From an uncultured bacterium (lineage in GTDB: Bacteria; Patescibacteriota; Minisyncoccia; UBA6257; 2-01-FULL-56-20), in NCBI GenBank assembly GCA_963844965.1, contig CAWJQC010000007.1, positions 96,001-160,000 on the forward strand: 64,000 nt of DNA, in the 5' to 3' direction. Below are positions 17,421-56,436 of the stretch, one piece after another (position 1 is the stretch's first letter; every line of letters begins with the position of its first letter). The notes below the pieces were generated by a model. The model was not told the DNA's origin and did not search any database. It saw only the letters and a list, made by a program, of their open reading frames with translations. The position numbers were made by a program, and so were the translations under genes.

Positions 17421-17578
17421 TTGCCAGAAATTCGCGCCGCCATAAAAATTTCCGCGGGTGTTTGCCTGCTGGTAGGGCGGTTATGTTTTCGGATTTTTTC
17501 CGATTTCGTTTCCGCCGAGGGCGGATTAGCTTCCGATAGAAACCTACGGCGAGCCGTCGGGTAATTCAAGCGTCCTCA

Positions 17579-18367
17579 CCGCCCGCCGGTTAACAATTGT
17601 TAACCGGCGGGCGGGAAGAGCAGGGTGTAATGAGGCGCGTAGCTCACCTGGCTGCTAATGGCGCGGCGCGATTTTCTCGCGCTAATTTCCGGGATGCGAA
17701 CCATTTCAGGATTTTCGGCAGATCGTTTTTGCTGATAACAAAAGCCCTCCCGATGCGGGTTGCCGGAATTCTCTTTTTGTCTATATTTTTGAAAACCGCG
17801 ACGCGGCTGATGCCCAAAACTTTCGCAAGTTCCGCCGTGGATATGAATTCCTTGTTGATCTCGTCCGCCATTCTCCGCATTTTCATTTTTCCACCTTAGC
17901 ACAATATCCGCGGGTTAACAATTGTTAACTTTGTCGGAATGGTAATCGGCCATAGTTAAAATCATAGTCAAAATGGTGGCTCATCTAGTGATTTGCCTCT
18001 GGTTGGGGGCTCTGAGTATCAACCAGTACCGGTTAACAATTGTTAACTTTGTCAGAATAGTGATTTGACATAGTTAGAACAATTAGAATGGTGACCTGCC
18101 ATAGTCGCATAGTCACGTGGCTCGTCCTTGGTGGTGGACTTTGGGCATCAATCGGCGCGGGTTAACAATTGTTAACTTTGTCAGAATGGTAATCTGTAGC
18201 CGGCGGGATCTCTGGCGGAGTCCTCCGCCAGGGGCGTGGTATCCCGGACATCAACTGGCGCCGGTTAACAATTGTTAACCGAGCAACAGAAAACAAAACC
18301 GAGAAAAAATCCCCCCAGTCATTTTTTCATCGTTTTTCCGTCCGCAGGTTAACAATTGTTAACCTGC
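17579..18367. repeat. array of six copies of the perfect palindrome GTTAACAATTGTTAAC, within degenerate tandem units of about 120 bp
   Basis: Core copies at 17589, 17913, 18031, 18161, 18264 and 18348. First copy extends to a 36-bp perfect palindrome (17579-17614), fifth to 20 bp, sixth to 24 bp. Units 2-4 share TTTGTCrGAATrGTrAT after the core and CATCAAyCrG before the next one. Confidence 0.85.
17644..17886 (-). CDS. excisionase/MerR-type helix-turn-helix DNA-binding protein
   Basis: 80 aa. ISTAELAKVLGISRVAVFKNIDKKRIPATRIGRAFVISKNDL matches the Xis/AlpA-family HTH_17 pattern. Confidence 0.6.
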   Translation of the reverse strand: MKMRRMADEINKEFISTAELAKVLGISRVAVFKNIDKKRIPATRIGRAFVISKNDLPKILKWFASRKLARENRAAPLAAR

Positions 18368-18484
18368 ACTGTGCGCTGCCTGTTGACTATTACTGACTAT
18401 TAAAAAATGCGGGTAGATAAAGCGAGCACGGTATGGAGTTGGGGCCGCTTGACGATGCGCGGTCGCGGTGTTAATTTCATAAAT

Positions 18485-41900: not shown

Positions 41901-42812
41901 ATGAAAGCATTAAAGGACTTTCTCAAAGAAACCGATGCGGGAGGATTTGCCATTGGGCATTTCAATTTTTCCGACCTTGCGGGTCTTAAGGCGATCTTTG
42001 AGGCGGCGGAGGAGTTAAATGTTCCGGTTATGGTCGGGGTTTCGGAGGGCGAGCGGGAATTCGTTGGGGTCTGGCAAGCGGCCGCGCTCGTGAAAAGTTT
42101 GCGCGAAGAATACGATTACCCGATTTTTTTGAATGCCGACCACACGCATTCTTTGGAAAAGGTCCGGGAAGCCGCCGAAGCCGGTTTTGACGAGATTTTG
42201 TTTGACCCCACACCTAACTTCGTTGGGAGAGGGGCAAGCGGCTCCGAGTCCGTGTTGGAGGAAAGTATTAGATTGACGAAAGAAGCGGTGCGGCTCGTAA
42301 AATCCATAAATAAAAAGATTTTGGTTGAGGGGGAGATTGGCTACATCGGTAGTTCATCGGAGGTGATGAAGGAGCGGCCGGAGGGGATAGAGCTTACGAT
42401 GCCGGAAGAAGCGCAGATGTTCGTGAAAGAAACCGGTGTTGATGTTCTGGCGCCGGCGGTCGGCAATATGCACGGGCTCTTAGCGCGGACGGGCGCGGAC
42501 GGTACGCGGACTTACGCGGAAAAGCGGTTGGATATCGCTCGCGTTAAGGCGATAAAGGATGCAGTGAAAATTCCGCTTACTTTGCATGGCGGTTCCGGCA
42601 CGGCTGACGAAGATTTTGTCGCGGCTATTAAAGCCGGAATCAATATAATCCACATAAATACGGAAATCCGCCTTGCTTGGCGCCGCGGCGTGGAAGAGGG
42701 ACTGAAAAACAATCCCGACGAAATCGCGCCCTATAAAATTCTGCCGCCGGCGGTAGAAGGAATTAAAAAAATCGTAAAAGAGAGATTGGAATTATTTAGG
42801 AGAGAAACTTAG
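41901..42812 (+). CDS. fba: class II fructose/tagatose-bisphosphate aldolase family protein
   Basis: GFAIGHFNF ... LHGGSG blocks of the class II aldolase family. Confidence 0.7.
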   Translation: MKALKDFLKETDAGGFAIGHFNFSDLAGLKAIFEAAEELNVPVMVGVSEGEREFVGVWQAAALVKSLREEYDYPIFLNADHTHSLEKVREAAEAGFDEILFDPTPNFVGRGASGSESVLEESIRLTKEAVRLVKSINKKILVEGEIGYIGSSSEVMKERPEGIELTMPEEAQMFVKETGVDVLAPAVGNMHGLLARTGADGTRTYAEKRLDIARVKAIKDAVKIPLTLHGGSGTADEDFVAAIKAGINIIHINTEIRLAWRRGVEEGLKNNPDEIAPYKILPPAVEGIKKIVKERLELFRRET

Positions 42813-46737: not shown

Positions 46738-47767
46738 ATGCCGGAAACAAGGACATCTGAAATTTCGTGGGTTACTCTGTGGCGGATTTTGTTTTTCGCC
46801 TTGCTTGTCGCGGTTCTCTACCTGGGGAGGCAGATTCTTTTGGGGTTATTTCTTGCCATAATTATTTCGTCGGGCATAGAGGTGGTGGTGAATTTTTTTG
46901 AGAGGGTGGGCATACCGAGAACGCTAGGTGTGATTTTGCTTTTTCTTGCCGGCTTGGTGCTCATAATTATTGTCATTTATACGGTTATTCCCCTGATAGT
47001 GGTTGATTTGAATTCCATTTTTTTCGGTTTTGATAAGTCAACGGCCGGCGTCATTTGGACATCACTCGTAGAGTCTGAGAACTTCGCAGTCGGTAAACAC
47101 GCTTCTGAGCGGTCTTTCGCAGCAATTTTTTTCCGGGAGCGCTTCTCCTTTGGATGTTTTTTCAAAGACTCTCGGAAGTTTCGGGCTTGTCATGGCGGTG
47201 ATCGTAAGTTCGTTTTATTTGAGCATAAGCCGCGACGGAGTGGAGAGGTTTATAAAAGCCGTGCTGCCCGCCGATTACGAGAAGTCGGCTTTGAGCATCT
47301 ATGAGCGCTCAAGGAAGAGAATTGGCTTTTGGTTCCGAACGCAGATTTTTTTGAGTCTGCTAATCGGGCTTTCGGTTTGGGGAGTGCTCGTTCTTCTTGG
47401 CGTGAGGCACGCTTTTCTCCTCGGCATAGCGGCGGCTATTTTTGAAATTGTCCCCTATGTGGGCCCAATTCTTTCCGGCGCGCTCGCGGTTCTTATGGCG
47501 CTTTCCACGTCCGTATCCCTCGCGCTTTATACTTTGATAGCATTTCTAATTATCCAGCAACTTGAATCACACGTATTGGTGCCGCTTTTGATGAGGCGCG
47601 CCGTTGGTTTGCATCCGGTGATAGTCATCATCGCTCTCTTAATCGGCATAGAGGTCGGCGGAGTTTTGGGTGCCTTGATCTCCGTTCCGGCAGCCGCGGT
47701 TTTTGAAGAGGCGCTTGACGAATGGTCGCAGAAGAAACGGCCGAAAGAACCGGAACCCGTTATTTAA
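46738..47767 (+). pseudogene. AI-2E (PerM/UPF0118) family transporter with an apparent +1 frameshift near 47070-47100
   Basis: Two overlapping ORFs (46738-47304, 47150-47767) in different frames together span an AI-2E-like membrane protein. Frame 2 opens right after a stop at 47069-47071. Confidence 0.5.
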
Positions 47768-47875
47768 TGCAATCCGAAAAATCCGAATTTCATCCGAATG
47801 ACCCAAATAGAATAAACAAAAACCATTTGGAGCATTCGGATGTATTCGCAGATTCGGATTGCTGTAGCGAAGCGT

Positions 47876-48439
47876 ATGAAAAAGTTTTACATTACGACGA
47901 CGCTTCCTTATGTGAACGCGCCGCCCCATATCGGTTTCGCTCTGGAGATTATCCAGGCGGATGTCATCGCCCGCTCCCGAAAGCTCGCGGGCGATGATGT
48001 GTTCTTTAATACGGGGACGGACGAGCACGGCTTGAAAGTATATCGCAGAGCGGTGGAAGAAAAAAAAGACCCGCAGGTTTACGTAAATGAATGTGCGGAG
48101 AAGTACGAAGATTTAAAACGTACGCTTGGCGCTGATTACACGAATTTTATCCGCACGACCGATCCCCATCACGTGAATGCCACGCGGGAATTTTGGAGAA
48201 AGTGCGACGAAAACGGTTATATCGAAAAAAAGCTCTATAAGATCAAGTACTGTGTTGGCTGCGAACTGGAAAAAACCGACTCCGAGCTTGAGAACGGCCG
48301 TTGCATAATTCACCCGAATCTTGAGATTGAAATAATAGAGGAAGAAAATTATTTTTTTCAATTCTCCCGGTATCCAGAAGTCCCTCCTCGTGCTTTACGA
48401 AAAATATCCGGATTTTGTTTTGCCAAGCGCAGCGTTTAA
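47876..48439 (+). CDS. metG: methionyl-tRNA synthetase, N-terminal fragment (frameshifted)
   Basis: PYVNAPPHIGFALE HIGH region. ORF-track start 47840, but the MKKFYITTTLPY start at 47876 is typical. Confidence 0.8.
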   Translation: MKKFYITTTLPYVNAPPHIGFALEIIQADVIARSRKLAGDDVFFNTGTDEHGLKVYRRAVEEKKDPQVYVNECAEKYEDLKRTLGADYTNFIRTTDPHHVNATREFWRKCDENGYIEKKLYKIKYCVGCELEKTDSELENGRCIIHPNLEIEIIEEENYFFQFSRYPEVPPRALRKISGFCFAKRSV

Positions 48440-48454
48440 ATGAGATAAAAAAAT

Positions 48455-49276
48455 TTGTTGAGGGCGGCTTGCAGGATTTCAGCGTTTCGCGCCTCAAAAA
48501 AAAGATGCCGTGGGGCATTTCCGTCCCCGGGGGACGAAGAGCATGTGATGTATGTTTGGTTTGACGCTTTGGTGAATTATGTATCGGCTTTGGGCTGGCC
48601 GGAGAACAAAAAGAAGTTCGCCGATTTTTGGGGGACAGAAGCGGCGCCGAATGCCGTGCAGATCGCGGGAAAAGACAATCTTCGCCAACAGTCGGCAATG
48701 TGGCAAGCGATGCTTATGGCGGCCGGATTGCCCACTTCGCGGCAGATTCTCATACACGGTTTTATTACTAGCGGCGGCAGTAAGATGAGCAAAAGCTTGG
48801 GCAACGTGGCGGACCCGTTCTTTTTGGTCCAAAAATACGGCACGGACGCATTGCGCTACTGGCTACTGCGTGAGATTCCCGCCTTTGAAGACGGAGATTT
48901 TGAGGAAGAAAAATTGCGCGAGCGGTACAATGGCGACCTAGCGAACGGATTGGGAAATTTTGCCGCGCGCGTTTTAACGCTCGGCGCCGGCCTCGGTAAA
49001 GTTTCGGAAGGTTTAAAACCCGATGCCGAGATATCGGGATATATAGAAAAAACAAAAAAGGTGGTTTCGGAAAAAACGGAAGGATTCAAATTCCACGAGG
49101 CGCTTGCCGCGATTTGGGATTTGACCGGCTTCGGCGATTCGTATGTGAATAAGACCGCGCCGTGGGGGATAAAGGATGCGGCGGAAAAAACACAGACAGT
49201 TTTCAATTTGGTAGTGATTTTGGATAATGTGGCGGCGATGCTTCGGCCATTTTTGCCGGGAACGCGCGCAAGATAA
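48455..49276 (+). CDS. metG: methionyl-tRNA synthetase, C-terminal fragment (frameshifted)
   Basis: HVMYVWFDALVNY and KMSKS motif GGSKMSKSLGNV. First about 25 codons of this ORF are out-of-frame read-through. Confidence 0.8.
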   Translation: MLRAACRISAFRASKKRCRGAFPSPGDEEHVMYVWFDALVNYVSALGWPENKKKFADFWGTEAAPNAVQIAGKDNLRQQSAMWQAMLMAAGLPTSRQILIHGFITSGGSKMSKSLGNVADPFFLVQKYGTDALRYWLLREIPAFEDGDFEEEKLRERYNGDLANGLGNFAARVLTLGAGLGKVSEGLKPDAEISGYIEKTKKVVSEKTEGFKFHEALAAIWDLTGFGDSYVNKTAPWGIKDAAEKTQTVFNLVVILDNVAAMLRPFLPGTRAR

Positions 49277-49338
49277 CTGAGTGCATAAATTGGGACGGCG
49301 AACTGAAAATAAAAAAGGGCGGGATTTATTCCCGCGCC

Positions 49339-50052
49339 TTAAATAGAAGTCAGAATGGTCTGTATGGCCGTTTGTACTTGAAGCATGGAACATATTGCTT
49401 TCTCGCCATGTTTTGGAAAATCTGGCGCGGCTTCCATAACCCGCTGATGCGAGTGATAGCCGCCGCTGAAGCCGATGGTGTTCAGTACTTGTCCGTGAGT
49501 GCTGTTGTACCATCTGGCAGCCAGTTTTTTGGCGGCAATCAGGCCATCGCGGGTGTCATCTACATATACGGCATTTTTCCAATCAATGAGGCCGTCGATA
49601 AAAGCGAATACATCCCAGAATGCCTCGGTTTTATCAAAAGAGCTGCCGCAGGCGAAAAGTAAAACATGAGGTGGCGTCAAACCCAGCACCTTTAATTTTT
49701 CCCAGAGAATGCCGTGGTCTTCGGCACTTAGGATGCCGACCGCAGCACCCAACAATTTGCAGGAGTTGATGAGTTCTGCGGCTCCATCGCGCAGCTTTGC
49801 TTCATTGTGGTGCTCGTCAAGGTATGATTTGCGGATTGTGTTTAGGCGTTCGGGCGTGGCGGTTTCCGGTATGCCGTGCCGGCGATAGAAATCCATGAAA
49901 TCAGCTCCGATTTCCGAACGGTATTCGTCAATGGTCGGAGCCGGTAAGCCGAAGGAGTTGAAGATTCGCGTCACGCTGCCATAATTTAATAATAGGTCGT
50001 CCCAAAGCGTTCCATTCCAGTCCAGGACAATGACGGTTTGTTCCTGTCGCAT
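49339..50052 (-). CDS. HAD-superfamily hydrolase
   Basis: Motif I VIVLDWNGTL (DxDGT-like) and YVDDTRDG near the C-terminus. Start MRQEQ at 50052. Confidence 0.6.
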   Translation of the reverse strand: MRQEQTVIVLDWNGTLWDDLLLNYGSVTRIFNSFGLPAPTIDEYRSEIGADFMDFYRRHGIPETATPERLNTIRKSYLDEHHNEAKLRDGAAELINSCKLLGAAVGILSAEDHGILWEKLKVLGLTPPHVLLFACGSSFDKTEAFWDVFAFIDGLIDWKNAVYVDDTRDGLIAAKKLAARWYNSTHGQVLNTIGFSGGYHSHQRVMEAAPDFPKHGEKAICSMLQVQTAIQTILTSI

Positions 50053-50100
50053 GCAGCTCCTTTTTAACAATTAAACTGGATTTATGATAAATTAATTCAT

Positions 50101-50529
50101 ATGGACCGTCAATCGGAAAAATCAATTTTTTTTGACGCGCACACGCATGTTCAATTTCAGGCGTTCGCTGGCGATTATAAGGAAGCCGTCGGGCGCGCTT
50201 TGAGTTCGGGCGTCGGCATGGTGAATGTCGGCACACAGAAGGACACCTCGCGGCGGGCCGTGGAAATCGCGCACGAATACGAGAACGAAAAAATTTTCGC
50301 AGCGGTCGGTTTGCATCCGATTCATACCGGTAAATCGTTTCACGACGAGGATGAACTTGGCCTACCGCGGACAGACGCAGATGATACGCAGACAGACGCG
50401 GAAAATTTTCAGCGTAAGTCCGCGTTAAATCCGCATGGGTCGGCGTCTGCTGGCTTCTGGAGCAGGGCGGAGGAATTCGATCATGAGTACTATAAAAAAC
50501 TCGCGCTGGACCAAAAGTTGTGGCGGTAG
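50101..50529 (+). CDS. tatD: TatD-family deoxyribonuclease, N-terminal fragment (frameshifted)
   Basis: FFDAHTHVQF His-ligand motif. Confidence 0.7.
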   Translation: MDRQSEKSIFFDAHTHVQFQAFAGDYKEAVGRALSSGVGMVNVGTQKDTSRRAVEIAHEYENEKIFAAVGLHPIHTGKSFHDEDELGLPRTDADDTQTDAENFQRKSALNPHGSASAGFWSRAEEFDHEYYKKLALDQKLWR

Positions 50530-50614
50530 GGGAATGCGGATTGGACTATTACCGTGCGACAAGCGACATGGGACAAGCGACATGGAATGAAATGAAGGCG
50601 CTAAACAGAGGCAG

Positions 50615-51073
50615 GTGCTTGGGGCACAGATACAACTTGCGCGGGAAATAAAAAAGCCCTTAATGCTCCACTGCCGAGACGGAAAAAAGTCCGGCACGGG
50701 GCCGGCATTTGATGATTTGGTTAATATTTTAGAGAGTCATGCGGCAGGTGTTCCCTTTGTGAGCCACTCTTTCGTCCGCAATCTCGGGTTGGCGAAAAAA
50801 TTACTTGATTTGGGTTCGTATTTTTCTTTTAACGGCATTATTACATTCACGCACGATTACGATGAAGTTGTGCGTTTTCTGCCGGTGGACAGGATATTGT
50901 CCGAGACAGATGCGCCGTATCTCGCGCCTGTGCCCCATAGGGGCAAACGCAACGAACCGGCGTATGTGGTAGAGGTTGTTAAGAAGATGGCGGAAATAAG
51001 AGGCCTTTCGATTGAAAAGATGGCAGAGCAGATTCGGGAAAATACGGGAAAAATTTTCGGTTTGAGATTTTGA
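50615..51073 (+). CDS. tatD: TatD-family deoxyribonuclease, C-terminal fragment (frameshifted)
   Basis: PLMLHCRD, SETDAPYL and RNEPAYV motifs. Third frame 50520-50612 encodes VAVGECGLDYYR. Confidence 0.7.
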   Translation: MLGAQIQLAREIKKPLMLHCRDGKKSGTGPAFDDLVNILESHAAGVPFVSHSFVRNLGLAKKLLDLGSYFSFNGIITFTHDYDEVVRFLPVDRILSETDAPYLAPVPHRGKRNEPAYVVEVVKKMAEIRGLSIEKMAEQIRENTGKIFGLRF

Positions 51074-51150: not shown

Positions 51151-54100
51151 ATGAAGAAGTATAACTTCGGAGAAATAGAGAAAAAGTGGCAGGAGGCGTG
51201 GGAGAAAGAAGAGCTTTACCGTGCCGACGACAAGAGCAAGAGAGAAAAAAAATATGTTCTGATTGAATTTCCGTATCCGTCTGGCGAGGGGCTACACATG
51301 GGGCACCTCCGGCCTTATGTTGCTGGAGACGTTTATAGCCGCCATTTGCGGATGTGCGGATATGAAGTTATGTATCCTATCGGCTGGGACGCGTTCGGAC
51401 TGCCCGCGGAGAACTATGCCATCAAGAACGGAATTCAACCGTCAATCTCAACGGCGCGGAACGTGAAAAATGCGAAGCAGCAGCTCAAAAGCTGGGGGAT
51501 GGGTTTTGACTGGTCGCGCGAGATAAATACGACCGACCCGAATTACTATAAATGGACACAGTGGATATTCCTGCAGCTTTGGAAAGCCGGCCTGGCTTAT
51601 GAAGCCACCGGTCTTATAAATTGGTGCCCGAAGGACAAAACCGGTTTGGCGAATGAGGAGGTAATTAACGGTTGCTGCGAGCGTTGCGGGGCGCTCGTGG
51701 AAAAAAAGGAAATGCGGCAGTGGTACCTCAAAATTACCGCCTACGCCGAAAAACTCTTGGAAGGTTTGAAGACGCTTGATTGGCCGGAAAAAATAAAAGT
51801 TCAGCAGGAAAACTGGATCGGCCGTTCGGAAGGAGCGGAAATAGATTTTGAAGTCGCTGGGCAAAAACCGAAGAAGGTAATATTGATGCATGGGAAAGAT
51901 GCAAATCCTGACGAAAAGTGGTATCCGTGGCTTGCGGAAGAAGTTCAAGAGCGCTGTACTAAATTTATTGCGCCTCGTCTGCCGGAATCCGACAATCCCG
52001 AACTTGAAGCATGGCTTCGTGAAATAGAAAAAGCGAATCCCGATGAAGATACTATTCTTATTGGACATTCTCGCGGTGGGGTGGCGATTTTGAGGTGGCT
52101 GGAAAATCTTAGGTCGGGGAAAGTCGTTAAAAAGGTAATAATAGTAGCTTCGGACAGGGGAGATGCCAAAAAGGAATCGCGGGGTTTTTTTGGCAAACCC
52201 TACGATTTCAAAAAAATACGGTCTCATTGCGACAGTTTTGTTGTTCTACATTCAAGGGACGATGAATGGGTGCCATTTGAAGCGGGTGAATATATTGCCA
52301 AAAATCTGAACGCCAACTTTTTGATTTTTGACGGCAGGGGACACTTCGGAAAAAAATTGCCAAAACAGGAAATTTCCGAACTCGTTGGTGAAATTTTTCC
52401 GAGTATCAAGGTTTTCACCACCCGCCCCGACACGCTTTTCGGTGCGACGTATATGGTTTTGTCGCCGGAACACGAACTTATATTAAAAATTAAAAATCAA
52501 ATATTAAATTGGGGGGAAGTTGAAAAATATATAAAAGTTGCTCAGGGCAAATCAGAGGAAGAACGTATTGCCGAAGGAAAGGAAAAAACCGGCGTGGAGC
52601 TCAAAGGAATCAAGGCGATTAATCCGGCGACGAAGGAAGAAGTTCCCATTTGGGTGGCGGATTATGTGCTTGCGGGATATGGCACGGGCGCGATCATGGC
52701 TGTGCCGGCGCACGACGAACGGGATTTTGAATTTGCGAAGAGGTATAAATTACCGATCAGGGAAGTTATAGCCCCGCTATTTATCGAGAAAGGAGGTCTA
52801 GATGCTTGGAGAGAGACCGGTGTTACAAAAAAACGCAACACAGTCAGTTGTATCATCAAACATTGGTCCGAGGATAAGTACCTTTGTCTGCGCTGGGTGC
52901 ACGATAACTGGCGCGGATTTGTAATCGGTGGCGTGGAAGGTGGCGAAGACATCATAGAAGCTGCCTGTAGGGAAATACGAGAAGAAACCGGATTCAAGAA
53001 TGTAAAATTTATAAAAGTACTTGGAAACGAGATTCACTATAAATTTTTTGCCTCCCATAAAAACGAAAACAGATGGAATGTTGGTCACGGGATTTATTTC
53101 GAACTCTTGAATGGCGAAAGTGATGAAATTTCTGAACAAGAAAAGAAATTGCATAGCGTTGTGTGGATTGATAAGGATAAAGTGGCCGATTTTATCGCCA
53201 ACGACCCCAGCGATTCTTTGTTGTGGGAGCGCCTTAATGGCGTATCGCGGCCGTTTATTGAGGAAGGAGTTCTGGTTGGTTCTGATAAATTCACCGGTAT
53301 GAATTCCGAAAAAGCCAAATGGGAAATTACGAAACTCGTCGGTGGGAAGAAACAAATTCAATATCGCCTGCGCGACTGGGTTTTTTCGCGCCAGCGCTAT
53401 TGGGGCGAGCCGATTCCGCTCGTCCACTGCGCGAAGTGCGGGATTGTTCCCGTGCCGGAAGAGGAATTGCCGCTGAAACTCCCGGAAGTGGAGAAATACG
53501 AACCTACCGGCACCGGCGAATCGCCGCTTGCTGCCGTGGATTCCTGGGTGAATACAAAGTGTCCTGAGTGCGGCGGGAGAGCGAAACGTGAAACTAACAC
53601 CATGCCGCAGTGGGCCGGAAGTTCGTGGTATTACCTCGCATACATAATGCGAGGAATTTCCCCGCCCGCGCCGACGCTTCGGCGGGCAGGCAATTTCCCC
53701 GCCAAAGGCGAGGCTAGCCAAGAGCTACAATTTCCAATTTCCAAATATCAAGAAGCTTTTAGGCATTGGCTGCCGGTTGACGTTTATTTCGGCGGCATGG
53801 AGCATACGACGCTTCATCTTCTTTATTCGCGGTTTTGGCACCAATTTCTCTACGATAAAAAATTCGTGCCGACGCCGGAACCTTATCTGCGTCGCGTGCC
53901 GCACGGGATAATTCTCGGTCCCGACGGCGAGAAGATGTCTAAAAGCCGCGGCAATATCGTGAGTCCCGACGAAATCGTGAAAAATTTTGGAGCGGATTGC
54001 CTCCGCATGTACGAACTATTCCTTGGTCCGCACGAGGCGACGGTTAGCTGGAAAAGCGAGGGCATTTTGGGGATTTCGCGGTTTCTGGAGCGCGTTTGGA

Positions 54101-54195
54101 AATTCTATGGAGTAATCGCGAATAATGCGAACCATGGACAAAATAATGCGAATGTTACAAGAAATTTACAACGGACGATCAAAAAAGATCACTGA
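51151..54195 (+). CDS. leuS: leucyl-tRNA synthetase carrying inserted serine-hydrolase and Nudix domains (main part, before +1 frameshift)
   Basis: HMGHLRPY (HIGH), NWIGRSEGAEIDF, TTRPDTLFGATY, AHDERDFEFA, YRLRDWVFSRQRYWGEPIP, KMSKSRGN. Insert 1 at about 51859-52401 (GHSRGG, D, H triad). Insert 2 at about 52783-53257 (Nudix box GGVEGGEDIIEAACREIREETGF). Confidence 0.9.
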   Translation: MKKYNFGEIEKKWQEAWEKEELYRADDKSKREKKYVLIEFPYPSGEGLHMGHLRPYVAGDVYSRHLRMCGYEVMYPIGWDAFGLPAENYAIKNGIQPSISTARNVKNAKQQLKSWGMGFDWSREINTTDPNYYKWTQWIFLQLWKAGLAYEATGLINWCPKDKTGLANEEVINGCCERCGALVEKKEMRQWYLKITAYAEKLLEGLKTLDWPEKIKVQQENWIGRSEGAEIDFEVAGQKPKKVILMHGKDANPDEKWYPWLAEEVQERCTKFIAPRLPESDNPELEAWLREIEKANPDEDTILIGHSRGGVAILRWLENLRSGKVVKKVIIVASDRGDAKKESRGFFGKPYDFKKIRSHCDSFVVLHSRDDEWVPFEAGEYIAKNLNANFLIFDGRGHFGKKLPKQEISELVGEIFPSIKVFTTRPDTLFGATYMVLSPEHELILKIKNQILNWGEVEKYIKVAQGKSEEERIAEGKEKTGVELKGIKAINPATKEEVPIWVADYVLAGYGTGAIMAVPAHDERDFEFAKRYKLPIREVIAPLFIEKGGLDAWRETGVTKKRNTVSCIIKHWSEDKYLCLRWVHDNWRGFVIGGVEGGEDIIEAACREIREETGFKNVKFIKVLGNEIHYKFFASHKNENRWNVGHGIYFELLNGESDEISEQEKKLHSVVWIDKDKVADFIANDPSDSLLWERLNGVSRPFIEEGVLVGSDKFTGMNSEKAKWEITKLVGGKKQIQYRLRDWVFSRQRYWGEPIPLVHCAKCGIVPVPEEELPLKLPEVEKYEPTGTGESPLAAVDSWVNTKCPECGGRAKRETNTMPQWAGSSWYYLAYIMRGISPPAPTLRRAGNFPAKGEASQELQFPISKYQEAFRHWLPVDVYFGGMEHTTLHLLYSRFWHQFLYDKKFVPTPEPYLRRVPHGIILGPDGEKMSKSRGNIVSPDEIVKNFGADCLRMYELFLGPHEATVSWKSEGILGISRFLERVWKFYGVIANNANHGQNNANVTRNLQRTIKKDH

Positions 54196-54610
54196 AGATA
54201 TTGAAACATTCCACTACAATACTGCCATTAGCGCACTTATGATACTCTTGAACGACCTTGAAAAGACCGGCGCGGGAAAAGAAGTCGGAGAAATATTTTT
54301 GAAACTTCTCGCTCCGTTCGCTCCGCACATAACGGAGGAATTGTGGGGTGGGGCGTTTGGCAAAAAAACTTCCATCCATCGCGAGGCGTGGCCACAATAC
54401 GACGCAAATTTGATAAAAGAGGAAACATTCACGCTCGTGATCCAGGTGAATGGCAAAGTGCGTGACAGCGTGGAGGCGGCCGCGGGCGTAAGCGAATCGG
54501 AAGCGAAAGAGCTGGCTTTGGGCAGGGAAAAAATTAAAAATATTCTCGGCTCGGCAAAACCCAAACGCGTGATCTACGTTCCGAGCAAGTTAATTAATAT
54601 TGTGCTTTAA
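54125..54610 (+). CDS. leuS: leucyl-tRNA synthetase, C-terminal anticodon-binding fragment (after +1 frameshift in A6 run 54181-54186)
   Basis: ITEDIETFHYNTAISALMILLN and VIQVNGKVRD are LeuRS C-terminal blocks. Removing one A from the A-run joins ...RTIKK to ITEDIE. Confidence 0.8.
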   Translation: MRTMDKIMRMLQEIYNGRSKKITEDIETFHYNTAISALMILLNDLEKTGAGKEVGEIFLKLLAPFAPHITEELWGGAFGKKTSIHREAWPQYDANLIKEETFTLVIQVNGKVRDSVEAAAGVSESEAKELALGREKIKNILGSAKPKRVIYVPSKLINIVL

Positions 54611-54617
54611 TTAAAGA

Positions 54618-55595
54618 ATGAAGGGAGGAGCGAGGGCAATAATGATATTGATCTTTATAGTGGTGATCGGCGTCGGGATATTTTTAGCTCACTCCGGTTT
54701 TGTCTCTGGTCTTAAGTCCTTCACTTCGGGATTGACCCGCTTGTTCCCACCTTCCTCGTCATCGTCTTCCTCGCAAGGGGGGGTGTCGTCAACGCAACCG
54801 GCATCTTCGCAATCTGCGCCTCCGTCCGTGCCGTGGTATGAACAATCATCCACTCCGCCCGCCAATTCTTCTGCCGCGGTGCCGTGGTATGAACAGACAG
54901 GGACGTCCTCGATTAATCCTTCGGATATTCCAACCGGTTACACGATCGATCAACTCTCGCCGTATTTTCACAGGGTGCGGCTTCGTTACGTCTCGGCCGG
55001 CTCGTTTTATTCGGTTGGGCAGATTTCTTTATACGCGAATCTGAACGGCAGCGATACGGTTGACGTGACGGGATGGATGCTCAGGGCGAACACTGGCGGC
55101 GAAGTTGTGCCGCAGGCGGTGAATTTATACGACCCGTCGGGGCTTGCCGCGCCGGATGATATTGTTTTGAAGAGCGGGGACTACGTGAATATCTACACCT
55201 CGGCAAGCGCCATCGGCGAAAATTTGCGGCTCAACAAATGCACGGGCTATTTGGAGGACACAAATCATTTCAATCCGTCTCTGCCACAAGATTGTCCATC
55301 CATCAGCCAATCCGACATTTCCGGTTTCAGCGGCCAGTGTCAGAATTATATTACGTCTTTGTACAGTTGCGCGCTGCCGGCTCCCAATCCGCCGGTGCCT
55401 CAAAACGATTACGGATGCATCAATTATTTAACCACGATAAACTTTAAAGGGTGTTACGAGAGGCACAGTGGCGACTCCGATTTTCTGAGCCACGAATGGC
55501 GTGTCTGGACCAGCTACACATTTTTGGACCAATATCACGACAAGCTCCAGCTTTTGGACAAAAACGGACTGCTCGTGGATTTGTACCAGTACTAG
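54618..55595 (+). CDS. membrane-anchored LTD-like domain protein with Cys-rich C-terminus
   Basis: TM, S-rich linker, LTD-like VDVTGWMLRANTGGEVVPQAVNLYD...VLKSGDYVNIYTS. Confidence 0.5.
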   Translation: MKGGARAIMILIFIVVIGVGIFLAHSGFVSGLKSFTSGLTRLFPPSSSSSSSQGGVSSTQPASSQSAPPSVPWYEQSSTPPANSSAAVPWYEQTGTSSINPSDIPTGYTIDQLSPYFHRVRLRYVSAGSFYSVGQISLYANLNGSDTVDVTGWMLRANTGGEVVPQAVNLYDPSGLAAPDDIVLKSGDYVNIYTSASAIGENLRLNKCTGYLEDTNHFNPSLPQDCPSISQSDISGFSGQCQNYITSLYSCALPAPNPPVPQNDYGCINYLTTINFKGCYERHSGDSDFLSHEWRVWTSYTFLDQYHDKLQLLDKNGLLVDLYQY

Positions 55596-55671: not shown

Positions 55672-56274
55672 TTAACTTCTGTCATCCGCGTCCATTCTGA
55701 GTCTCGGAGTGTTGCCTTTCTCTGCATGCTCTTCCGCCTGGTATGCCAATTTCTCAATATACATTCTGAAGATTTGCAGACCGGGTTGAAGTACGACGGG
55801 AGACGTTCCTAGATTGGTTAGTTCAACCATCAGTTGGGAGGGTTTGGTAATGCCGTGACCGGGATGGATAAATCCATGTGAAGCGTGGTTCAGAAAGATT
55901 CTACCAAGTTCGGTGGTGTTTTCCAGTTTGGCCAAGAGCCACTTATTGATGCCAAGCGATTCTCTGGTTTGGGCAATAATGCTTTGACCCGAACCTAGAA
56001 CATATCTCCCAAGTCCCATATATGGCTCGAAGGCCGTTTCAATCGACTCTTTGCTTGCGGGATCGATGGGCGTCGTATTTTCACGCGGGATGCGGAAGCG
56101 ATTACCAAGGTGAAGATAATAGCAGATGTTTCCAAGTGATTTTTCGTCGAACGGAACGATAATCAGGGCACCCAGTTCCATAAGTTTTGGGAAAAAGTAG
56201 CCCGGCAGTCGGCCCGATTTAATGTCATCAATCGTGCGTATCTCGTTCAATAGATCTTCCGCCGGTCCGTTCAT
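55672..56274 (-). CDS. dcd: dCTP deaminase-like (dUTPase superfamily)
   Basis: ASHGFIHPGHGITKPSQLMVELTNLGTSPVVLQPGLQI matches the Dcd active-site block. Start MNGPAEDLL at 56274. Confidence 0.6.
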   Translation of the reverse strand: MNGPAEDLLNEIRTIDDIKSGRLPGYFFPKLMELGALIIVPFDEKSLGNICYYLHLGNRFRIPRENTTPIDPASKESIETAFEPYMGLGRYVLGSGQSIIAQTRESLGINKWLLAKLENTTELGRIFLNHASHGFIHPGHGITKPSQLMVELTNLGTSPVVLQPGLQIFRMYIEKLAYQAEEHAEKGNTPRLRMDADDRS

Positions 56275-56436
56275 TGTCGCCCTCCTTATTAATACGCTGC
56301 GATTAGTATATAACACAGTTAATCGCTCCACAAGTCCGCTGTTGCTTATTTTTTGCGTTGCAGTATAATGCGGCTATCCGGTTGAGCTTCGCTCGCCGGA
56401 AATTAAAAGCTCCTTGAGAGCTCGGAGGTACGGGAT

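Follow-up and report, generated by a model that had tools for sequence, protein, structure and literature searches.

The 64-kb window analysed here, the whole of a stretch of contig CAWJQC010000007.1 from an uncultured bacterium, contains a leuS gene whose first reading frame (51151–54195, + strand; 1014 residues) encodes a genuine bacterial-type leucyl-tRNA synthetase (LeuRS; class Ia) of a Patescibacteria (Candidate Phyla Radiation, CPR) bacterium. Two complete, independently folding and, judged from their sequences, apparently catalytically competent enzymes are inserted in surface loops of its mobile editing domain, CP1: an RBBP9/YdeN-type alpha/beta serine hydrolase (insert B) and a Nudix domain (insert C). 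The trait recurs in hundreds of independent genomes of Patescibacteria. The trait is common in the group rather than singular. Full-text searching of the literature, in which most subscription journals lay outside coverage, found no description of these LeuRS inserts.

The host enzyme and the position of the inserts

The first reading frame of leuS comprises the catalytic core, CP1 with both inserts, and the KMSKS region. It matches the Pfam families PF13603 (E=2.3e-57, in two pieces), PF00133 (E=4.5e-44) and PF09334, as well as PF06821 and PF00293, the families of the inserts. The HIGH signature, here HMGH, was read directly at residues 49–52 (51295–51306, + strand), and KMSKS was located by direct reading and alignment at residues 928–932 (53932–53946, + strand); H49, G51 and H52, and K928–K931, are invariant in 45 aligned LeuRS. 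Further motifs stand at residues 221–235 (NWIGRSEGAEIDFEV), 423–428 (TTRPDT), 520–529 (AHDERDFEFA) and 738–752 (YRLRDWVFSRQRYWG). A first-pass annotation of this DNA had identified the gene as leuS, and direct reading found every motif that it named.

An AlphaFold2 (AF2) model of the 1014-residue open reading frame (ORF) has a predicted local distance difference test score (pLDDT) of 83.5 and a predicted template modelling score (pTM) of 0.75, with both inserts modelled confidently, in blocks of 85–97. The top Foldseek matches of this model are all LeuRS, including that of Thermus thermophilus (1h3n; E=2.2e-59, 32% identity). Among the 50 matches listed, all LeuRS chains are of 876 residues or fewer, and so none of them can hold comparable inserts. 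A 1014-residue protein identical to the window LeuRS is already public (P0001).

In common with the bacterial LeuRS of T. thermophilus (1h3n/2bte), Escherichia coli (4aq7/4arc) and Neisseria gonorrhoeae (7nu4), the window enzyme has HIGH and KMSKS signatures, a zinc-module-like CxxC...CxxC with CP1 following the module, threonine-rich TTRPDT and HDxRD editing motifs, and anticodon-binding and C-terminal domains. Unlike them, it adds foreign catalytic domains of ~180 and ~150 residues within CP1, has an extra disordered insert of 34 residues, and has no leucine-specific domain, which alignment with relatives shows to be absent before KMSKS.

The boundaries of the two large inserts were defined by alignment with insert-free relatives and with an E. 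coli LeuRS sequence. Insert B (residues ~237–417) lies at the tip of a hairpin, between ...EIDFEV and IKVFTTRPDT. Insert C (residues ~549–700) occupies a CP1 loop after the HDxRD motif, between HDERDFEFAKRYKLPIREVIAP and ...EGVLVGSDKF. Both loops are only a few residues long in E. coli LeuRS and in the related LeuRS P0011, while in another relative, P0008, they carry short repeat peptides of ~20–25 residues. Pfam and alignment thus agree with the first-pass annotation that two foreign domains of the families it named are inserted at these two points with their catalytic motifs intact.

Between the inserts lies the CP1 editing core (52402–52794, + strand; PF13603, 2.3e-57), with TTRPDT at 52417–52434 and AHDERDFEFA at 52708–52737. 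Residues T423, R425, D427, T428, H521, D522, R524 and D525 are invariant in the 45 aligned LeuRS, with or without inserts; in E. coli LeuRS the threonine-rich and aspartate residues of CP1 are T247/T248/T252 and D342/D345. Because the CP1 residues of the window enzyme and the synthetic-site signatures are invariant, the inserts are additions to a LeuRS that is otherwise intact, not substitutes for an editing site that was lost. The first-pass annotation had suggested an auxiliary editing role for the esterase; as a compensation for editing, that role is not supported, given the same invariance.

Insert B: an RBBP9/YdeN-type serine hydrolase

Insert B (residues 237–417; 51859–52401, + strand) is identified as a complete RBBP9/YdeN alpha/beta serine hydrolase by Pfam, PDB matches, free-standing homologues and the structure model. 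The Ser_hydrolase profile PF06821 was found above its gathering score in the segment where the first-pass annotation had predicted it (E=3.8e-16; 59.9 bits, cut-off 22), over residues 244–400 and profile positions 2–155 of 172. Among PDB sequences, human RBBP9 (E=1.2e-19) and Bacillus subtilis YdeN (E=2.4e-14) align with the insert from end to end. In the AF2 model of the full ORF, the blocks of insert B have pLDDT values of 85–96. No NCBIfam family was found for this hydrolase.

The motifs of the family are present in order: VILMHGKD (residues 243–250), the nucleophile elbow GHSRGG with Ser307 (305–310; 52063–52080, + strand), SRDDEWVP with Asp371 (368–375; 52252–52275) and GRGHF with His398 (395–399; 52333–52347). 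The putative triad Ser307/Asp371/His398 has its aligned counterparts in RBBP9 at GHSSG, TDD and GHF, the residues there being Ser75/Asp138/His165 by numbers counted in the alignment; Ser75 is the catalytic serine of RBBP9 (PMC8866121). Among LeuRS site-B inserts the triad is kept in 64 of 69 for Ser, 61 of 69 for Asp and 62 of 69 for His. Most of the exceptions are probably due to the four of these 69 inserts that are Nudix domains rather than hydrolases.

In its size (~180 residues), minimal alpha/beta hydrolase fold and aligned HG, GHSxG, DD and GHF motifs, insert B resembles RBBP9 and YdeN (PF06821; PDB 2qs9, 9fcr, 1uxo). It differs from them in sitting in a loop of another enzyme, whereas RBBP9 and YdeN are free-standing. 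RBBP9 is reportedly, in work of 2020 by Shenoy, an activator of the valine-ester prodrug valacyclovir. As a serine aminopeptidase it takes off N-terminal residues that are hydrophobic; Leu, Ile, Phe, Tyr and Trp are trapped as acyl-enzymes, the alpha-amine must be free, and aromatic residues rather than Leu are preferred (PMC8866121). Ser76, Tyr99 and Glu108 anchor the alpha-amine (PMC8866121), and on our reading of the alignment these anchors have no identical counterparts in insert B.

Insert C: a Nudix domain of a synthetase-associated subfamily

Insert C (residues 549–700; 52795–53250, + strand) is a complete Nudix domain. Here too the profile search bore out the first-pass assignment, with NUDIX PF00293 above its gathering score (E=1.6e-10; 41.6 bits, cut-off 21.1) over residues 582–678. 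The Nudix box, GGVEGGEDIIEAACREIREETGF (residues 593–615; 52927–52995), matches the pattern GX5EX7REUXEEXGU at each position on direct reading, and its R, E, EE and G are kept in 55–63 of 63 site-C inserts. A second motif, HKNENR (53056–53073), represents a subfamily motif HKxxNR, in which K, N and R are invariant or nearly so.

The AF2 model of insert C has a pLDDT of 94.8 and a pTM of 0.87. Foldseek returned 498 PDB matches at E<=0.001, and the 50 listed are all Nudix structures with probability 1.0. Top matches include 2azw, the Aquifex Ap4A hydrolase 3i7u (TM scores 0.74/0.84), E. coli RppH (including its Ap4A complex), MutT1, NudB and NudI, at 15–20% identity. Nudix enzymes of the Ap4A hydrolase/RppH type have an aromatic residue ~17 residues after the box, and Y/F is read directly in insert C at +15 to +18.

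Among characterised enzymes, the Nudix Ap4A hydrolases and RppH (Aquifex aq_158, 3i7u; lupin, 1f3y; E. coli RppH, 4s2x/7sp3) are the best sequence and fold neighbours of insert C, with which they share a complete Nudix box and a single-domain alpha/beta/alpha fold (TM 0.70–0.84). Insert C is distinguished from them by its own conserved N-terminal extension and the HKxxNR motif, besides its low identity and a position below every NCBIfam equivalog cut-off. The NCBIfam models for NudE, NudB and NudI all score it far under their cut-offs.

The subfamily to which insert C belongs is small, with 456 clusters at E<=1e-3 among 1.84 billion representatives. LeuRS or LeuRS fragments make up 109 of the top 150 of these clusters. 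One archaeal-type prolyl-tRNA synthetase (ProRS; P0316) carries a Nudix domain of the LeuRS type between its anticodon-binding and C-terminal domains; its Nudix box is one residue shorter and has KE in place of RE.

Distribution among Patescibacteria

Of 8000 scored relatives, led by Patescibacteria/CPR LeuRS, the best 120 were surveyed for the distribution of inserts by mapping on a profile built from enzymes without them. An insert stands at site B in 74 of these 120 and at site C in 67, and inserts are found more rarely at sites A (before LDWPE...NWIG), D and E. In a cleaned set of counts, in which Nudix domains at site B (n=4) were separated from hydrolases, 44 relatives have the hydrolase only, 35 the Nudix domain only, 26 both and 15 neither; at least one of the two domain types is thus present, in frame, in 105 of the 120. 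A second, species-representative set consisted of 80 genomes, the work of many projects, kept from at least 577 matches, the best match being 56% identical to the window protein. In this set, where the domains are again in frame, 24 genomes have both domains, 51 the Nudix domain only, five the hydrolase only and none neither. Both samples are skewed to insert-bearing sequences, because the query itself carries the inserts.

The first-pass annotation had held a doubly decorated synthetase to be unusual and had proposed a survey of orthologs. That survey shows the same inserts to be widespread with their catalytic residues kept, and the double insertion itself, at 26 of 120 and 24 of 80, is far from exceptional. 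Since the same domains occur in frame and with conserved residues across many relatives, the doubly inserted LeuRS is neither a chimera nor confined to the genome of the window.

Some relatives carry up to three Nudix copies or two tandem hydrolases. Other cargo also occurs: a HAD domain after the zinc module (P0018; HAD also in P0081), a Ham1/ITPase domain (P0063), a PF13489 methyltransferase (P0054, P0085) and, at site B of P0263, a DUF559/REase-like endonuclease fold. No other family is nearly as frequent in LeuRS as the hydrolase and the Nudix domain. For several of these proteins the NCBI-derived name is ‘alpha/beta fold hydrolase’ or ‘class I tRNA ligase family protein’ and makes no mention of LeuRS. 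Automatic annotation of the public sequences does at times give a fusion, as in P0065, whose JGI name, in truncated form, reads ‘leucyl-tRNA synthetase/8-oxo-dGTP pyrophosphatase MutT (NUDIX family)/predicted alpha/beta hydro...’. The genomes at four loci with Patescibacteria-type LeuRS (L025, L026, L038 and L078) are labelled Woesearchaeota archaeon, Gammaproteobacteria or Ruminococcus sp.; these odd labels probably reflect mis-binning or mislabelling of metagenome-assembled genomes.

Gain, loss and probable capture of the inserts

The nearest relatives by core identity, P0008 (80%) and P0011 (79%), are both without hydrolase and Nudix domain; the P0011 locus has the synteny MetRS-...-TatD-leuS in common with the window. 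The nearest insert-bearing relative, P0002, is 73% identical in the core and only 31–32% identical in the inserts. The hydrolase of the window belongs to a rarer, RBBP9-like subtype, and is 62% identical to that of P0003, a LeuRS with a core only 58% identical. Most LeuRS-embedded hydrolases are of a second, YdeN-like subtype, ~30% identical to that of the window, and in P0028 and P0033 both subtypes stand in tandem.

On a neighbour-joining tree of 120 core sequences, a crude one, the pattern of presence and absence requires at least 23 changes at site B and at least 17 at site C. Insert divergence and core divergence are hardly correlated in a likewise crude analysis (rho 0.33 at site B, -0.06 at site C). 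The GC content at third codon positions (GC3) is 0.40 and 0.45 in the two inserts, against 0.56–0.59 in the core; GC content and GC skew along leuS reveal no sharp insert boundary, and GC3 alone sets the inserts apart. Free-standing Patescibacteria hydrolases of ~180 residues are 50–61% identical to insert B and match it from first strand to last helix, and free-standing Nudix proteins of 160–190 residues in the insert-C subfamily reach up to 47% identity. In none of the six frames of the window did a profile search detect a free-standing paralogue of insert B or insert C. The simplest reading of these comparisons is that whole genes were inserted, lost and replaced repeatedly in permissive loops whose positions are fixed, with insert B apparently derived from a free-standing Patescibacteria gene.

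A short repeat element lies in frame inside the TatD gene upstream of leuS (50370–50450; peptide DADDTQTDAENFQRKSALNPHGSASA), with a second copy ~8 kb away (42484–42523, - strand); two matches were observed against 0.07 expected. Peptides of the ‘xADKNQRKSAx’ type, as in TatD, are found in LeuRS loops B and C of P0008 and in two other places in P0002. These peptides look like the products of small mobile repeats, all of one family, whose in-frame insertion targets the surface loops of proteins.

Possible functions of the inserted enzymes

The favoured reading, held tentatively and at a little short of even confidence, is tethered clean-up of synthetase by-products by both inserted domains. Ap4A is a synthetase product, formed from aminoacyl-adenylate and ATP, and its cleavage by Nudix enzymes is asymmetric (PMC13627108). 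By-products of the adenylate site with a nucleoside-diphosphate linkage would be the target of the Nudix domain, the likeliest substrate being Ap4A/Ap4N, cut to ATP and AMP, or else a related nucleotide that is capped or has a pyrophosphate link. For the RBBP9-like domain the target would be free-amine alpha-aminoacyl groups in ester (or amide) linkage, as in stray or mis-acylated aminoacyl esters, and their hydrolysis would take place beside the CP1 site, to which the tRNA 3' end comes. That 3' end bears precisely an aminoacyl ester whose amine is free, and RBBP9 needs such a free amine.

A link to the synthetase is better supported for the Nudix domain than for the hydrolase, whose role in aminoacyl-ester clearance would follow from chemical analogy. 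Besides the near-confinement of the Nudix subfamily to synthetases, free-standing Nudix genes of this subfamily are linked to leuS in three of the four contexts examined. Those of P0256 and P0309 lie directly upstream of leuS, the downstream gene of P0309 being confirmed as an insert-free LeuRS, and the context of P0284 reads TatD-Nudix-...-HD-...-Nudix-leuS. The Ser_hydrolase, for its part, is independently fused with a Nudix domain, one of another subtype, in free-standing proteins of ~315 residues. The putative functions named in the first-pass annotation, hydrolysis of aminoacyl esters and of Ap4A or adenylates, thus have indirect support in valacyclovir activation by RBBP9, in the Aquifex Ap4A hydrolase and RppH as near structural neighbours of insert C, and in the Nudix domains of leuS operons and of ProRS.

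Several findings weigh against clean-up of by-products. The matches of insert C to characterised Nudix enzymes are all weak, at the 15–20% identity given above; no NCBIfam equivalog reaches its cut-off for insert C, the best being RppH NF001936 with 29.9 against 118 bits; and its best PDB profile match is not an Ap4A hydrolase but the decapping effector AvrM14. The fourth free-standing Nudix gene adjoins Fpg, which would suit a MutT-like role. In insert B the positions of the RBBP9 anchors Ser76, Tyr99 and Glu108 read Lys, Arg and Val by our own position count in the HMMER alignment, with a Glu one residue later. Free-standing hydrolase genes, in two neighbourhoods, have unrelated contexts that give no consistent link to leuS or functional clue. 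Unrelated domains (HAD, methyltransferase, Ham1, DUF559 endonuclease) and short repeat peptides occupy the same loops in relatives, which argues for loops that are simply permissive. Lastly, close relatives do without either insert.

A close rival, which we regard as quite possible and only somewhat less probable in itself, has the inserts hitch-hiking in permissive CP1 loops. They would be ordinary enzymes that work on their own in house-cleaning or scavenging for a reduced genome, such as a nucleotide-pool sanitising Nudix enzyme and a general esterase or aminopeptidase, kept since fusion to an essential, constitutive protein guarantees their expression, and with no mechanistic link to leucylation or editing. 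The range of cargo at the same or nearby sites speaks for this, from HAD, PF13489 methyltransferase, Ham1 and DUF559/REase to a second hydrolase subtype and one to three Nudix copies, as do the repeat-derived peptides of P0008 in exactly the insert-B and insert-C loops. So do the many changes at both sites, the insert divergence that barely follows that of the core, and the closest relatives without both inserts. One genome has, at a distance from leuS, a cluster SNase-MazG-Ser_hydrolase-HAD-(Ser_hydrolase-NUDIX)-...-Ser_hydrolase, which includes one of the ~315-residue fusion proteins; this cluster, the Nudix gene beside Fpg and the unrelated contexts of free-standing hydrolases point the same way. 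Hitch-hiking is harder to reconcile with a Nudix subfamily in which 109 of the top 150 clusters are LeuRS and a further member is in a ProRS, with free-standing Nudix genes that usually lie directly upstream of leuS, and with the same two families being far commoner in LeuRS than any other. Both inserts, moreover, sit on the mobile editing domain and not at the termini, where neutral fusions normally gather.

Patescibacteria are amino-acid auxotrophs, and the inserts might instead supply substrate: an RBBP9-like aminopeptidase would free N-terminal hydrophobic residues, including Leu, from scavenged peptides for the synthetic site, and the Nudix domain would recycle nucleotides to AMP/ATP. RBBP9 is indeed a serine aminopeptidase of hydrophobic N-termini with trapped Leu and Ile adducts (PMC8866121), and neighbours of leuS (TatD, HAD_2 and a dCTP-deaminase-like gene) are nucleotide or nuclease related. 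This explanation is nevertheless improbable, given that RBBP9 favours aromatic residues over Leu, that the free-standing hydrolase is common without linkage to leuS, that most LeuRS-embedded hydrolases are of the other subtype, and that nothing points to channelling.

Tethered clean-up can also be set in a wider frame, which is more doubtful. CP1 of Patescibacteria LeuRS may serve as a docking platform of modular type, on which small house-cleaning hydrolases are brought together in cis as a guild and clear aminoacylation by-products (Ap4N and stray or wrong aminoacyl esters) at source. Members of the guild would be a Nudix family specific to synthetases, two aminoacyl hydrolases of the RBBP9/YdeN type and, at times, HAD, Ham1 and others. 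Whole-gene insertion at fixed loops would bring about the gain, loss and exchange of its modules, with the Nudix family found also in ProRS and placed first in leuS operons.

In concept both the tethered clean-up and the docking platform have precedents in hydrolytic modules that remove wrong synthetase products. Such modules act in cis or in trans, namely CP1, ProRS INS and its autonomous homologue YbaK (PMC3973320). The editing role of the window inserts is hypothetical by comparison, and the window LeuRS keeps its canonical CP1 site besides them. Further synthetase clean-up factors are AlaX, DTD and ThrRS N2, and none of these, nor CP1 or INS/YbaK, is an alpha/beta hydrolase or a Nudix enzyme. 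We know of no other synthetase with Nudix and alpha/beta-hydrolase accessory domains.

Frame break and integrity of leuS

The first-pass annotation placed both inserts in one uninterrupted frame of leuS. This holds for the inserts, which lie within the unbroken 1014-residue ORF; it does not hold for the span up to 54610, since the frame ends at a TGA stop (54193–54195) and the C-terminal part of the protein follows in the +1 frame. The break lies in a run of six A residues followed by G (54181–54187, + strand), with one base in excess of the frame needed for the C-terminal part. The continuation (54188–54610, + strand), within an ORF at 54125–54610, encodes the anticodon-binding and C-terminal domains; this ORF matches PF08264 Anticodon_1 (E=1.3e-22) and aligns end to end with relatives. 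Removal of one A from the run (54181–54186) gives a continuous protein of 1152 residues with the junction TIKKITEDIE, which fits those of relatives (TIKKVTEDIE, TIKKIGEDIE). At this position a syntenic relative, L001, reads AAG AAA GTC.

An AI-2E transporter gene, MetRS, TatD (in three frames) and leuS are all split between frames near homopolymers (46738–51073 and 54181–54195), and all four are intact in L001. Upstream of leuS the breaks lie at about 47126–47160 (AI-2E transporter), 48400–48453 (MetRS) and 50494–50625 (TatD). Apart from the single-base shifts, the four genes keep full-length conserved coding sequence without internal stops. Because the AI-2E transporter, MetRS and TatD genes are also split near homopolymers and are intact in L001, the break in leuS is read as most likely an assembly indel and not biology. 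This suggests an assembly of the contig prone to homopolymer errors, and other ORF calls on the contig therefore need care. Programmed +1 frameshifting at A AAA AAG is rejected as the main cause, the three other genes being likewise broken and the syntenic relative intact.

It is very unlikely that this leuS copy is a decaying pseudogene, with a real frame break and inserts tolerated since selection was lost: the assembled gene is split, as are MetRS, TatD and the AI-2E transporter nearby, but all four are otherwise full-length and highly conserved, homopolymer errors account far better for two essential synthetases broken side by side, and many genomes hold an intact leuS with the same inserts and conserved catalytic residues.

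It is hardly credible that the inserts arose by chimeric assembly, or that they are inteins or introns, with an ORF in frame, that are lost before the enzyme matures: they are whole-gene sized with a distinct GC3, and P0263 has a DUF559 endonuclease-type domain at site B, but more than 100 independent sequences from different projects show this architecture with both flanks in frame, the catalytic residues are conserved as in translated functional domains, and within the full-length protein the inserts are modelled confidently by AF2 (pTM 0.75). The assembly chimeras that the first-pass annotation had allowed for are accordingly not borne out. Inteins and other whole-ORF insertions resemble the window inserts in being protein-sized insertions in a conserved essential gene, patchy among close relatives. 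Unlike inteins, the window inserts are metabolic hydrolases with conserved active sites, evidently kept in the mature protein. An intein was rejected on inspection of the junctions (FEVAGQKPKK... and ...EIFPSIKVFTTR), which lack both Cys/Ser/Thr where the insert begins and His-Asn followed by Cys/Ser/Thr where it ends, and on the Pfam results, which detect hydrolase and Nudix only.

Other features of the gene and its surroundings

A third, short in-frame insert of 34 residues, RGISPPAPTLRRAGNFPAKGEASQELQFPISKYQ (53650–53751, + strand), is GC-rich and repeat- or hairpin-like and is not a domain. Its DNA (GC 0.60) contains the hairpin GCCGACGCTTCGGC and repeated AATTTCCCCGCC. By alignment it is not present in P0011, P0008, P0002 or E. 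coli LeuRS, and residues 838–856 in this region are predicted to be disordered, with pLDDT below 50.

The leuS gene is flanked by a HAD_2 hydrolase gene (49339–50070, - strand; 1.3e-10), HAD being among the modules inserted in LeuRS (P0018, P0081), and by a dCTP-deaminase-like gene (55672–56331, - strand; 5.5e-18). Directly downstream of leuS, an ORF of 325 residues (54618–55595) with a Ser/Pro-rich N-terminus has no Pfam match at E<=0.001, and the same is true of an ORF of 1063 residues at 22799–25990. A perfect 16-bp palindrome, GTTAACAATTGTTAAC, occurs six times at 17571–18380, spaced 84–325 nt apart. No ORF of at least 120 residues is listed between 17421 and 18406, and the array lies upstream of an ORF at 18407–18967. 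It could be a set of protein-binding sites, operator or origin-like.

Significance

Aminoacyl-tRNA synthetases are among the most conserved enzymes, and their accessory domains have revealed editing, Ap4A signalling and antibiotic resistance. Here an essential synthetase has two complete extra predicted active sites in its proofreading domain, across hundreds of species of a major uncultured radiation. One consequence is for annotation, as several such LeuRS are named as a hydrolase or a generic class I tRNA ligase. Should the inserts be unrelated to aminoacylation, they would be a natural case of repeated whole-gene insertion in fixed permissive loops, useful for protein engineering and for the understanding of gene fusion in reduced genomes. 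Should they act on by-products of the synthetase, this would be the first case known to us in which a Nudix or alpha/beta-hydrolase module serves a synthetase; the RBBP9/YdeN family, itself poorly understood, would gain a physiological role, and there would be a bearing on translation hygiene in minimal-genome symbionts. If CP1 is in fact a docking platform for such enzymes, it would represent a previously unrecognised layer of synthetase quality control.

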